From positions 310,001 through 374,000 of the forward strand of contig NW_019029011.1 of assembly GCF_002105155.1 (NCBI RefSeq): a stretch of DNA of 64,000 nt, given 5' to 3'. The notes under the pieces were generated by a model. The model made no database searches, was not told the origin of the DNA, and saw nothing but the letters and a program-made list of their open reading frames with translations. This DNA comes from Lobosporangium transversale. Lineage: Eukaryota. Position 1 is the stretch's first letter, and every line of letters starts with the position of its first letter. Shown here in pieces: positions 7,250 through 14,736 of the stretch. The translations under genes and the position numbers were made by a program.

Positions 7250-8394
7250 CAGTGGAATCTCGATAATTGTACATTTTTGTACAAATTTCGAATTTGATAT
7301 ATTTCTAGGCCATTGGTTGGCTAAGAGCCTCTCAATTCAAAAATACTATTGTAAGCTGACCTCTCTATGTCAAACATGGCAGGAGGGCAGGTAAGTGACT
7401 GGCAAGTGAGGGAGATTGTAGCTAAAGGAAGGGATTGCAACTGAGGGAAGGTGATGGCGTAAGCTTGAAAAGATCTTGTGGTATTTTTTTTTTTTTCTTT
7501 TGTCAATCATCAAACACGACACAATCATAGCATCAGCCATCAAGCAAGTCCCTCTTCTCTAGTCCGTTCTATTCACGATGTCGGCTACTCTCTCGAGCAA
7601 CAGACACAGCTGCAGCTGCATTGGTCCCTCTCTACCCTTAGGGCAGGGAGAGTTTAACAGCCATCTTCGCGATGGCAAAATCCCACCATCTTCGCCATGG
7701 TGATGATTGTTAGTGACCAGCGCTGTCTCTGCAGTTGGTTTTCTGTCTGCTTCGAGGCCCTCCGCAAGCAAGAAGCAATTCTACAGGCTGGACGTCCAAA
7801 CTCTTTCTCAAGCAGCAGACACAGTTGCAGCTGCATTGGTCCCTCTCTACCCTTAGGGCAGGGAGAGTTTAACAGCCATCTTCGCGGTGGCAAAATCCCA
7901 CCATCTTCGCCATGGTGATGATTGTTAGTGACCAGCGCTGTCTCTGCAGTTGGTTTTCTGTCTGCTTCGAGATGGAGCAAGTCTTGATCCTTTTCACTGT
8001 CGCCTCTGTCATTCTCGCTGTCAATTGCCATAATAGTAACCACCTCAACATTTTTTCAGTCTACAGCTGATATAACATTTTGCCAGTACTCGATTCTAAC
8101 TTTTTTTTTTTTTTTTTTTTTTTAATAATATTAATAATCATATTATTACTATTATCAATATTATAACATACAAGACAAAAGAAGGAGGATCCGGAGCATC
8201 CGCAGCCGCACATGGACAAGAATGTTTGGCCTTTGTTGTTCACTCACCACTCACTCCCTCATACTTATTCGATATATAACATTTAATAAATCTACAGCTC
8301 GTCACTTTATTACTTTTTCCGGGGGGCTGGGAATGTGAAAAACCAAGTCTAAAAGTACTCCTCATGGATGGCACTTTGTGTGCATTGCATTACA
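7250..8394 (+). repeat. Left terminal inverted repeat (1,145 bp)
   Basis: Reverse complement of 13591-14736; the match ends at ..GTGTGCATTGCATTACA (8394). The only difference I found is poly-T 23 vs poly-A 24. Confidence 0.95.
7591..7971. repeat. Two ~166-bp direct repeats inside left TIR (7591-7756, 7806-7971)
   Basis: Unit ..CAGACACAG..GGTCCCTCTCTACCCTTAGGGCAGGGAG..TCTGTCTGCTTCGAG occurs twice, period 215 bp, few substitutions. Confidence 0.9.
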
Positions 8395-8452
8395 TTATGC
8401 TGTCCCGAGAGCTCCGTGCTTTACCGTTCCAAAAGATAAACGCTGCACTATT

Positions 8453-8460
8453 TATAAAAA
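8453..8460 (+). promoter_or_regulatory. Probable TATA box of the cargo nuclease gene
   Basis: TATAAAAA 65 nt upstream of ATG 8518, followed by a C/A-rich leader and CAACATG start context. Confidence 0.5.
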
Positions 8461-8517
8461 GAGCTGAATCACCCATTATCCAATTATCCAACACTCTCAA
8501 TCAACATTTTCTTCAAC

Positions 8518-10687: not shown

Positions 10688-13574
10688 ATGGAGTCTCAAA
10701 CACCCATTCAACAGCGCTTGATATTTGTGAACTACAACGAGACGAATATGCATAGCGATCTGCTAGCTTCGCCTAGTCATAGAAAGTCTCAACAGCTTTC
10801 CACGAGTTCTCAAGAGGCTCCTTTGGACTTATGGAAGTATAGGCAGCAGATTCTTGATGCACAAAAGAAAGACTCCTCAATGCAAGGCTCATCAAAACAA
10901 AACTCGTCAGAGCAACATCCCCCATGGCTTAGTTCCGTGCTGCCTTCATCACAATCTTCAGAACAGTTTCCTGCACCGCTTCCACTAGCACAGTATCCAC
11001 TCCTCCCTCCACCGCAAACTCCATATCAACTCCCTCCACCGCTCAATCTACAGCCGCCCGCACCACAACTTCAACAGCAGCGCCCAACACCACTGAATCA
11101 ACTATCTCCTGCGCCCCAACTTACACAGCGGCTTCAAACACCCCTTCTACCACCACCACCACAGTATCCGCTGCTGTCCGCGGCACAGCCCCCACAACAG
11201 TTCCGACAACAGCCTATACAAAGCCCCCAACGGTTTCAATCTGTCGGCTCTAAACATGGGCCTGCGGGACGCATCAATAAGCCTGTGGTTTTAATGCCCA
11301 AACCATCCACTTCAAAGTACGAAATACATAGCTTTGACGTGAAGGAATATATCCTTCAAATGTGGAAGAGTCATGTAGCCAACCATCAGCTGTTTGGCGG
11401 AAAGCATTCCTTCCCAAAGCAAGGACCGTTTGAAGAGGAGCATCACCTTCGCCGACATACCATTAATCGCTTACTCGATTGGGAAAAGAAAGTCAAGCTC
11501 GAACCGCGGGCCAATTGGGGCAATAAGTTCAAAGTTGTCCGCCGGCCCTTTTATCCAGTGGAAGTAGTTCTTGTCCGTTTGCTTCAAATACTTCGAGAGC
11601 GCCGACTGCCTGTCAATCAACCGTTGATGAGGATAATGGCGGGCCATGTTTATGATATGCTTGTGACAAAGTTGGGTCCTTTGGAATTTGCAAAGCCCTC
11701 ATTTTCATCAGGGTGGTTCGACTCATTCAAGGCCCATTGGGGTATTACATACCATAAGATGATGGGAGAAGCGGGCGGAGTTGACCTGGAAGCTATTGCG
11801 GAGGAGGTTGAAAAGATAAAGATTGCTTTGGAGGCGTATCGCATTGAAGATATCTATAATGCCGATGAGACTGGCTTGTTTCTCCAGACATTATCTTCAT
11901 GGACTTTGGACTTTGAAAAGCTGGCAGGGATAAAGATTCCGTCTACAAGGGTTTCTATACTCCTTTGTACCAATGCTACCGGGACAGATAAAAGAAAGCC
12001 GTTTGTCCTCAGTAAGTGTTTGAGAGTATTTTTTCATATTTTTCCCCTTTCATTTTTCAAGCGTGTAAGCATTTCAAACAGTGTATGTAATAACCAGAGT
12101 ATTTCTAGGCAAATATCTTCCACGAGGCTTCCATAATGATAGCATTCTTCAGGAACTTATAGAGATTCATCCATGGAACGAGGCTGCTCAGGGCCATGGC
12201 AGCGATTTTGAGGATCATGACGAAAGTCTGAGCAGTACTCATACGAGAAGCCAAAAGAAGCCTCGCCATCGCCCTGACTACATGACAAGAATCGTGTTTT
12301 TAAGTTGGCTAGAGAGGTTTCAAGAATCAATTGCTGCCCAAAATAATGAGCGAAAAGTTGCGCTACTTGTTGATAATGCAGGCTGCCATAAGCTCCTGGA
12401 TGAGGACAGGCGGCGCTTCCCCAACATCGGAGTTATCTTTTTACCAAAAAACTCGACTTCTGTCACGCAGCCGCTTGATGCAGGAATCATATCTGTTTTT
12501 AAGCGATACTATCAGAGCAACGTAAGGAATCAGACTCTGAGCATGCGTTTGGACCCTTTCAATGTAGATGGTAGGCGGGTGAATGCCGTCTCTAACTATG
12601 ATGCATGGAGAATCATTGCTGGATCATGGGACGAGGTCAAAAGTATGAGTATCAGGAACTGCTTTGGTCATGTCCCAATTTTTGGTAGGCGTCAAAAGAA
12701 TGAGCTCTCAGGCAATGTCGCGCACGATCCAGATGTGCTTTGGGCCCTAGTGTGCGATAATGAAGCACAGGAAGCCGCAACCAACGACACTGGCAACACG
12801 ACAACGGACATGGGGCGCAATTACCCTCTTCTACCAAGTCCTAACCTTTCTGTGCCAAGTTCTAACATCCCTCTACCAAGTCCAAGCTCTAAGGATCCTT
12901 TTGTGTGCGCAGCTTACGGGGACCTTAATCGCACTGATCGTGAAGCGAGACTAAGGAATACGGTTGCACCATTTGCGAGGATCCTTGACGGGACACCCAT
13001 CATATACCATGCCATCAATGAATTGCTGGAAGAAGAAGGCTTAGTTACTGAGAAACTTCTGTCGTACCTCGCCCCAAGACCAAGCGCCGCCGAACTTATG
13101 GATGTAGATTGGCAGGAGCATGATGATGACGATGACGAGGATCACGAAGTATATGTCAGTGATGCAGAGGAATTGGGCGAATATGTCGCGATATCAAAAG
13201 CTAGTAGGAGAGGCTCCTATGTCAGTCGTGTCCATATCCAACCCTCAGATGACGATTCTTCTATGGATACTGATGGATCTGAAGAGCAAGTAGACTATGA
13301 TGAGAGGGTCCAGAATATGTCTCCTGGTGCACGGCATGATGTTATGATGCTTGCTGCAGCAATAGCAAAAGGCGATGCTCGAAAGATCATCCAGTTGCAT
13401 GCTGACAAATTGTTTCTAACGGAGATCCCAGATTATGAAGATCCTAGTACCAAGTATGATAAGAAGCAGTTTTTGGCAGACCAAGCAGAGGCAAAAGCTA
13501 AACATCAAGAGCAACAAGAAACGTATGCGAAGATTATGGCTAAATTTCCAGATATACCCTCGTCCCAACGCTGA
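10688..13574 (+). CDS. pogo/Tigger-family transposase (CENP-B-type HTH + DDE_1), ~929 aa, one intron (12012-12108)
   Basis: FSSGWFDSFKAHWGI (CENP-B HTH end), IYNADETGLF, LLCTNATGTDKRKPFVL, ALLVDNAGCH, IFLPKNSTSVTQPLDAGIISVFK; DD34D spacing. The GTAAGT..CTAG intron joins track ORFs 10583-12136 and 12081-13574 in frame. Confidence 0.93.
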
Positions 13575-13590
13575 GAATTTTGCGCTGTAC

Positions 13591-14736
13591 TGTAATGCAA
13601 TGCACACAAAGTGCCATCCATGAGGAGTACTTTTAGACTTGGTTTTTCACATTCCCAGCCCCCCGGAAAAAGTAATAAAGTGACGAGCTGTAGATTTATT
13701 AAATGTTATATATCGAATAAGTATGAGGGAGTGAGTGGTGAGTGAACAACAAAGGCCAAACATTCTTGTCCATGTGCGGCTGCGGATGCTCCGGATCCTC
13801 CTTCTTTTGTCTTGTATGTTATAATATTGATAATAGTAATAATATGATTATTAATATTATTAAAAAAAAAAAAAAAAAAAAAAAAGTTAGAATCGAGTAC
13901 TGGCAAAATGTTATATCAGCTGTAGACTGAAAAAATGTTGAGGTGGTTACTATTATGGCAATTGACAGCGAGAATGACAGAGGCGACAGTGAAAAGGATC
14001 AAGACTTGCTCCATCTCGAAGCAGACAGAAAACCAACTGCAGAGACAGCGCTGGTCACTAACAATCATCACCATGGCGAAGATGGTGGGATTTTGCCACC
14101 GCGAAGATGGCTGTTAAACTCTCCCTGCCCTAAGGGTAGAGAGGGACCAATGCAGCTGCAACTGTGTCTGCTGCTTGAGAAAGAGTTTGGACGTCCAGCC
14201 TGTAGAATTGCTTCTTGCTTGCGGAGGGCCTCGAAGCAGACAGAAAACCAACTGCAGAGACAGCGCTGGTCACTAACAATCATCACCATGGCGAAGATGG
14301 TGGGATTTTGCCATCGCGAAGATGGCTGTTAAACTCTCCCTGCCCTAAGGGTAGAGAGGGACCAATGCAGCTGCAGCTGTGTCTGTTGCTCGAGAGAGTA
14401 GCCGACATCGTGAATAGAACGGACTAGAGAAGAGGGACTTGCTTGATGGCTGATGCTATGATTGTGTCGTGTTTGATGATTGACAAAAGAAAAAAAAAAA
14501 AATACCACAAGATCTTTTCAAGCTTACGCCATCACCTTCCCTCAGTTGCAATCCCTTCCTTTAGCTACAATCTCCCTCACTTGCCAGTCACTTACCTGCC
14601 CTCCTGCCATGTTTGACATAGAGAGGTCAGCTTACAATAGTATTTTTGAATTGAGAGGCTCTTAGCCAACCAATGGCCTAGAAATATATCAAATTCGAAA
14701 TTTGTACAAAAATGTACAATTATCGAGATTCCACTG
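13591..14736 (-). repeat. Right terminal inverted repeat (1,146 bp), containing ~166-bp direct repeats at 14015-14180 and 14230-14395
   Basis: Reverse complement of 7250-8394; begins 16 nt after the transposase stop. Confidence 0.95.

Follow-up and report, generated by a model that had tools for sequence, protein, structure and literature searches.

Structure of the element

A 64,000-nucleotide stretch of the Lobosporangium transversale genome (contig NW_019029011.1, positions 310,001 to 374,000 of the forward strand; hereafter the window) holds a pogo-like DNA transposon with a predicted restriction-type nuclease gene beside its transposase gene. The element is 7,487 bp long (window 7250-14736), begins with CAGT at 7250, ends with ACTG at 14736, and is flanked on both sides by TA, which would represent the target-site duplication that is a criterion of the pogo superfamily. 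Its two terminal inverted repeats (TIRs) were 99.8% alike across 1,149 alignment columns, the differences being a single mismatch (8395) and an additional T within a run of Ts. We hold this anatomy (Table 1) to be nearly certain, and it agrees with an earlier note on this DNA that had described a complete element with CAGT termini, TA on both sides and matching TIRs.

Table 1. Positions of the element's features and borders in the window.
Feature	Position	Strand	Remarks
Left TA	7248..7249		Putative target-site copy
Left TIR	7250..8397	+	1,148 bp; begins CAGT
Two repeat units within left TIR	7588..7971	+	169 bp each, 97% alike, 215-bp period; mirrored at 14015-14398
Spliced transcript inside TIR	7972..8338	+	Run X7; intron 8036-8174, GT..AG; points inward
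PD-(D/E)XK nuclease gene (predicted)	8518..10068	+	Exons 8518-8580, 8679-8842, 8945-9304, 9396-9637, 9712-9853, 9943-10068; about 364 amino acids
Transcribed spacer	10069..10687	+	Run X7; downstream of nuclease stop; spliced intron at about 10212-10302
DD34D pogo-like transposase gene	10688..13574	+	Exons 10688-12011 and 12109-13574; intron confirmed in RNA
Right TIR	13588..14736	-	1,149 bp; includes the TIR transcript unit in mirrored form, at about 13647-14014 on the minus strand
Right TA	14737..14738		Putative target-site copy; 194 bp upstream of UNC-93/MFS gene

The transposase (929 amino acids, aa) was stop-free in the window, with a long Pro/Gln-rich N-terminus, an acidic C-terminal tail and the catalytic triad D393/D530/D565, which is of the DD34D type. 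Pfam matched it to HTH_Tnp_Tc5 (E 1.4e-4, at the family cut-off) and DDE_1 (E 8.7e-24), and it thereby combines the HTH_Tnp_Tc5/CENP-B-type domain and the DDE_1 core by which the pogo superfamily is recognised. Among 51 fetched sequences it fell in a distinct clade with a long C-terminal tail (support 0.89), a tree that did not establish the label "Tigger".

Public sequencing runs were compared with the window across 7980-13587, the comparison covering four of the eight listed runs and at most two samples. The right junction between TIR and interior was present in four of four runs, and the left junction was bridged by contigs of runs X3 and X5. All four runs connect the interior's right end with the TIR, so the inner structure of the element is not an artefact. 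A fold-back read that produced false TIRs would explain a near-perfect inverted repeat of 1.15 kb; the single-base indels of the window do resemble long-read errors, and the read support covers the inner junctions, the outer junctions between TIR and flank resting on the window assembly. Against this stand the TA-CAGT ends, which are typical of the group, and the inner junctions and the 8395 mismatch, which are present in independent contigs. Together with a one-off capture, against which the recurrence described below argues, this explanation is largely refuted and close to negligible.

Seven listed runs from four studies contained 80-94% of the sampled words of the interior, and run X8, which carries the same species label, contained next to none, which is no proof of absence. 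About 10 differences from the window were common to three or four runs across 5.2 kb. Positions 11577-11596 of the transposase were missing in four of four runs, causing a frameshift and truncation at 315 aa; the copies dominating those contigs would thus be non-autonomous, whereas the window's copy is open. In X3 the depth of the interior was 857-909 versus 90.5 for a variant contig, a ratio that may point to about 9-10 copies, depth not being copy number. A second copy was not found within the window. The same run held a diverged fragment at window 9543-9652 ending in an AT repeat and loose ends in the transposase (12442-12481 and 12853), pointing to deleted or interrupted copies elsewhere. 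Taken as a whole, this is a pogo-like DD34D transposon bounded by TIRs, likely multi-copy and active until recently; that it is young, as had been proposed, was supported.

The nuclease gene and its family

The second gene lies upstream of the transposase on the same strand, has six exons and encodes the motif E...PD...EVK (E171, D216, E230 and K232), so that the co-oriented gene with a restriction-fold motif was found as expected. Word-index homologue searches using the nuclease found a single homologue (P0001), and HMMER, run against 1.84 billion representatives, returned 37 hits at E<=0.001, the query counted. The family is widespread, with 37 clusters at 50% identity. When 17 hits were looked up, 15 were named, every one from genera that we take to belong to Mortierellaceae. 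One named L. transversale protein matched residues 77-272 of the nuclease with one difference and carried the same splice at 9305-9395. In a 36-row alignment, from which 8 homologues under 200 aa were dropped, overall identity was 25-35% and the motif was conserved: E171 in 32 rows (gaps in the other 4), D216 in 34, E230 in 33 (Asp in the other 3) and K232 in 35.

The AlphaFold model of a full-length member (P0003, pLDDT 80.6) matched DrdV with Z 9.6 (root-mean-square deviation 3.1 over 138 aligned residues), followed by HsdR (9.1), BpuSI (8.7) and TT1808 (8.4). Seven of its top nine structure matches had a restriction-enzyme or nuclease fold (Z 7.8-9.6), counting TT1808, which we take to be of that fold; the other two were mitoribosomal chains, which presumably share the restriction-endonuclease fold. 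The model of the truncated, window-type protein gave NucS as its best match (Z 6.5), with the same set of structures lower, and sequence searches of the PDB gave nothing useful. We regard the modelled restriction-endonuclease core fold of the family as firm. Both defining features of the PD-(D/E)XK superfamily, the conserved E...PD...(D/E)xK residues and (in the homologue model) the core fold, were found, and the nuclease is probably catalytically active.

The window lacks one G after 9853 that three of three DNA runs carry and that the RNA junction fits. With the observed last intron, the final exon in the window is out of frame (the last ~41 aa), leaving the catalytic core unaffected; with the extra G, the frame closes on the RPS(Y/F) motif seen in homologues. 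The G is probably missing through a slip of long-read sequencing or as a change private to this sequence. The earlier claim that both open reading frames (ORFs) are intact is thus correct only in part: it holds for the window's transposase and for the nuclease core, with caveats at this G and in the run copies without 11577-11596.

We considered that the nuclease might be a secreted or delivered Crinkler-like effector, merely dispersed by the element. In related fungi, CR-REase domains are established as effector domains (PMC6131194), and in fish the spread of a Crinkler-like gene next to hAT and mariner ends has been described (PMC12957317). The N-terminus of the nuclease, judged by eye, is short and basic and not a signal peptide. 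At E<=0.1, Pfam gave a weak HSDR_N match in 3 of 25 aligned family members and neither Crinkler nor any other family; in scans of the window's exons and these 25 members no Crinkler family, RuvC/TnpB match or NTPase partner was found. The effector proposal, which the earlier note had also raised, thus gained no support and is very improbable.

Relatives of the element

A metagenome scan was made with the transposase, the nuclease alignment being too diverged, and so looks from transposase to nuclease and not in reverse. It yielded 67 loci, seven of them in the clade of the window's transposase (L001-L007). None of 21 pattern matches in viral contigs was confirmed. Catalytic spacing differed across the clade, being DD34D in the window and L001, DD35D in L002, L003 and L005, and DD37D in L006 and L007.

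Searched with the nuclease-family profile, the 67 loci gave one clear match, L003, with five exon hits down to E 9e-20. Its nuclease is open (504 aa), 27% identical to the window's, has four of five introns at matching places and keeps the motif intact. The L003 nuclease and transposase are convergent, with stop codons 84 bp apart, a spacing that suggests that the nuclease lies within the element; the transposase is 49-55% identical to the window's. At L001, arms of 116 nt beginning TA-CAGT enclose a second spliced gene behind the transposase. This gene belongs to a different nuclease-type family: its last 365 codons are open and show the pattern GE...GRKVD...EFK, which we take to be typical of another fungal restriction-fold family, and it is likely, by its sequence pattern, a second kind of PD-(D/E)XK gene. 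L006 and L007 have arms of 135 and 126 nt around an open transposase alone, with no cargo. Altogether, a nuclease-type gene was present at two of the seven loci, two were clearly cargo-free, and three were partial (L002 and L004, which are short, and L005).

Because the L001 family differs and L006 and L007 are TIR-bound without cargo, the cargo is optional, and its family, side and orientation vary. The link between nuclease and transposase very probably recurs in diverged relatives, L003 and L001 standing against the one-off capture that would have undone the linkage. What had been put forward as an undescribed nuclease-carrying pogo family was upheld in that the link recurs and our searches found no catalogue entry; it is not a fixed two-gene family, given the two TIR-bound relatives without cargo. 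The whole looks like an undescribed transposon group.

This variability is what would be expected if the nuclease genes were mobile, self-interested or decaying members of a Mortierellaceae family, picked up by any transposon without benefit to the carrier. Cargo family, side and orientation differ across the three cases, close sisters lack cargo, the trees show no sign of co-descent, the nuclease family is widespread (37 clusters at 50% identity), and the main RNA form, as described below, is unproductive. The open frames and intact motifs in the window and in L003 despite 27% identity, however, speak against mere hitchhiking, and two unrelated nuclease types in one small transposase clade would suggest selection, small as the sample is. 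We consider hitchhiking doubtful, though a serious contender.

Four further observations were made at these loci. L005 carries, at 2766-3004, a probable miniature inverted-repeat transposable element of the clade: it is small and hairpin-like, its ends are of the TA-CAGT type, and it resembles the L001 TIR at about 79%. At 1580-2560 of L005, where L003 has its nuclease, lies an apparent convergent spliced transcript with short low-complexity repeats, possibly another cargo. Directly upstream of the L001 cargo gene are three to four tandem 130-bp repeats (6577-7053), which echo the 215-bp repeats of the window; sequence similarity between the two sets was not found. An 820-codon ORF with a HET domain (E 2e-8) lies at L006 4656-7118, 1.1 kb outside the right TIR.

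Transcription and splicing

None of the runs containing the element is recorded as RNA, and run X7 was taken as such from its GT..AG joints; the splicing evidence comes from the contigs of this one run, and contigs drop rare forms and gauge expression poorly. Eight GT-AG-type joints in X7 were not in the three DNA runs, and these confirmed four of the five nuclease introns and the transposase intron. At nuclease intron 3, the sole X7 contig that crosses it uses the donor at 9165, which shifts the frame and leads to a stop at 175 aa, before the PD...ExK part of the motif; 9163-9393 was covered by no X7 contig. L003 has an intron at the position matching donor 9305, and this donor is for that reason taken as the ancestral productive site. 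A nuclease-transposase fusion through the spacer intron was rejected because stops come first in all frames.

The TIR is itself a strong transcription unit. The contig of its transcript had a depth of about 3,110 in X7, versus 12-50 for the interior genes, and was thus about 100-fold deeper. The transcript ends by the inner edge of the TIR and contains a candidate 75-aa ORF with good start context, a hydrophobic N-terminus and a basic remainder; Pfam gave no family for the TIR peptide exons or the spacer frames. Folding of the TIR repeat unit gave z -2.4, with equal stability in 4 of 200 shuffles, and Rfam at E<=1 across 7200-10700, TIR repeats included, gave no match.

Abundant RNA from the end of the element, and tandem repeats close upstream of the nuclease, in the window as in L001, would suit a nuclease that aids transposition by cutting footprints, joined ends or TIR repeats, so that sister-chromatid repair restores or multiplies the element. 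For accessory nucleases of DNA transposons, restorative homing of this sort is the function studied most; TnpB has been shown to do it, and it is proposed for Fanzor and KolobokP (PMC13565253, PMC9587614). Empty sites, however, differ with each insertion, a footprint of 6-7 bp is expected thousands of times by chance, and TnpB uses a guide RNA that runs out of its element, whereas the TIR RNA here points inward. PD-(D/E)XK enzymes of this type are not known to be RNA-guided. A homing function is unlikely.

Comparison with known systems

The element resembles the pogo superfamily (Passer, Tigger, pogoR, Lemi, Mover as well as Fot; Gao et al. 2020, PMC7386202; Dupeyron et al. 2020, PMC7325037) in its HTH_Tnp_Tc5 and DDE_1 domains, its TA target, a DDxD triad within the Tigger/pogoR/Lemi range and a transposase length of 929 aa within the range of 300-977. 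Published pogo elements are given as 1.2-5.2 kb long, with TIRs of at most 856 bp (insects only) and only transposase ORFs (PMC7386202). At 7.49 kb, with 1,148-bp TIRs and a second, non-transposase gene, the present element lies outside the published range and exceeds its limits in length and TIR size. No Mortierella or Lobosporangium entry was found in the supplementary files of the two surveys (8 and 6 files).

KolobokE and KolobokP are likewise DDD/E transposons with an accessory nuclease, PD-D/ExK in the former and His-Me in the latter; in some KolobokP families it seems to be missing (Kojima and Bao 2022, PMC9587614). They differ in belonging to another superfamily with TTAA targets. In KolobokE the nuclease resembles lambda exonuclease and sits downstream of the transposase domain, whereas the window's is a separate spliced gene whose family, unlike KolobokE, has its best fold matches among type I/IIG-L restriction and DUF820-like nucleases. 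On Fanzor- or TnpB-carrying Mariner and other DNA transposons, too, an optional nuclease occurs in several arrangements on DDE elements (PMC13565253), with a RuvC fold and guide RNA in place of the restriction fold seen here. Spok spore killers and CR-REase proteins are fungal PD-(D/E)XK proteins tied to mobile DNA, and SPOK3 shares the HsdR-like fold match (Vogan et al. 2019, PMC6660238). The window's nuclease has neither a kinase resistance domain nor a Crinkler N-terminus, and neither Crinkler delivery nor an NTPase was found with it.

Medea1 of Tribolium was reportedly linked with a composite Tc1 in 2008, in a title by Lorenzen. It combines a composite Tc1 element with an NTPase-REase (restriction endonuclease) gene and has selfish inheritance (PMC11342252), and is thus a Tc1/mariner-group element linked with a PD-(D/E)XK gene. 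The window's element differs in being compact and without NTPase. With KolobokE (PD-D/ExK), KolobokP (His-Me; PMC9587614) and Medea1 (REase; PMC11342252) on record, the statement in the earlier note that nuclease passengers of DNA transposons are typically of the RuvC type did not stand.

The literature searched held no description of a pogo element with an REase gene, and Repbase, Dfam, Zhang et al. 2016 and Lorenzen et al. 2008 lay beyond this search, so that a prior description there is possible. Accessory nucleases on DNA transposons are already known (Fanzor, KolobokE and KolobokP, the Tc1 of Medea1); a pogo-type element with restriction-fold cargo appears to be new. This adds a pogo lineage to the few eukaryotic DNA transposons on record that carry an accessory nuclease, and shows restriction-fold genes riding compact cut-and-paste elements in fungi. 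Toxin-like domains would thereby have a direct way to spread and could, at a later time, be taken into service as effectors or drivers; the cargo-bearing and cargo-free sisters form a natural comparison for what accessory nucleases do for transposons.

Proposed role of the nuclease

We propose, with a probability of roughly 40%, that the predicted nuclease acts as a selfish poison kept under restraint, which would give an advantage to those nuclei or spores that retain the element. As established for the group, the transposase would bind the TIRs, excise the element and insert it at TA by cut-and-paste. The nuclease would be unnecessary for transposition, because TIR-bound relatives without it (L006 and L007) keep open transposases. 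It would cut DNA with little regard to the insertion site and be restrained by mostly unproductive splicing, and the abundant RNA or peptide encoded in the TIR might, as a guess, act as an antidote. The hyphae of these fungi are multinucleate; if the cutter diffuses there and protection stays linked to the element, losing the element would carry a penalty.

Selection on the nuclease is argued by the repeated presence of open, motif-complete nucleases. A poison is favoured because the closest fungal and Tc1-linked precedents, SPOK3 and Medea1, kill through a PD-(D/E)XK domain; spore killing by SPOK3 needs the PD-(D/E)XK lysine (PMC6660238). It is also favoured because the nuclease has no delivery signal, because empty sites that change with every insertion are hard to recognise for a cutter made of protein alone, and because the main splice form avoids the active site. 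In its broadest form, the clade would repeatedly recruit restriction-type nucleases as addiction toxins, with an antidote encoded twice in the giant TIRs and a toxin throttled by splicing, giving drive among the nuclei of a coenocytic fungus; this extension is decidedly unlikely.

Several findings count against a selfish poison and against the recurrence and fold on which it draws. The element itself contains none of the partners that Spok or Medea1 have (kinase, methylase or NTPase), and for the TIR transcript no counterpart is known in L001, an element with short TIRs. The splicing result comes from a single run's contigs, which lose rare forms. Foldseek gave no match at E<=0.001 for the nuclease models. 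The seven close loci carry only two record-name prefixes and are not seven independent samples. No TIR was found on the L003 contig, and L005, 72% identical to L003 in DNA, showed no nuclease in the 1.25 kb after its transposase. The L001 cargo had no Pfam match, its front part gave no single frame, and its score against the family profile was weak (E 0.22, the best of 501 with 500 shuffles). Finally, the window and L003 do not pair as sisters in the tree of the nucleases or in that of the transposases, with modest support, and separate captures are for this reason as likely as shared descent.

The neighbourhood in the window

Outside the element, the window contains a 2-kb inverted duplication (16878-18910 and 41185-43174, 90% identical) with a 4-hydroxyphenylpyruvate dioxygenase gene and its neighbour. 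Paralogous patches of 70-74% identity (15963-16557 with 46469-47003, and 20046-20306 with 47188-47416) suggest an old inverted segmental duplication.

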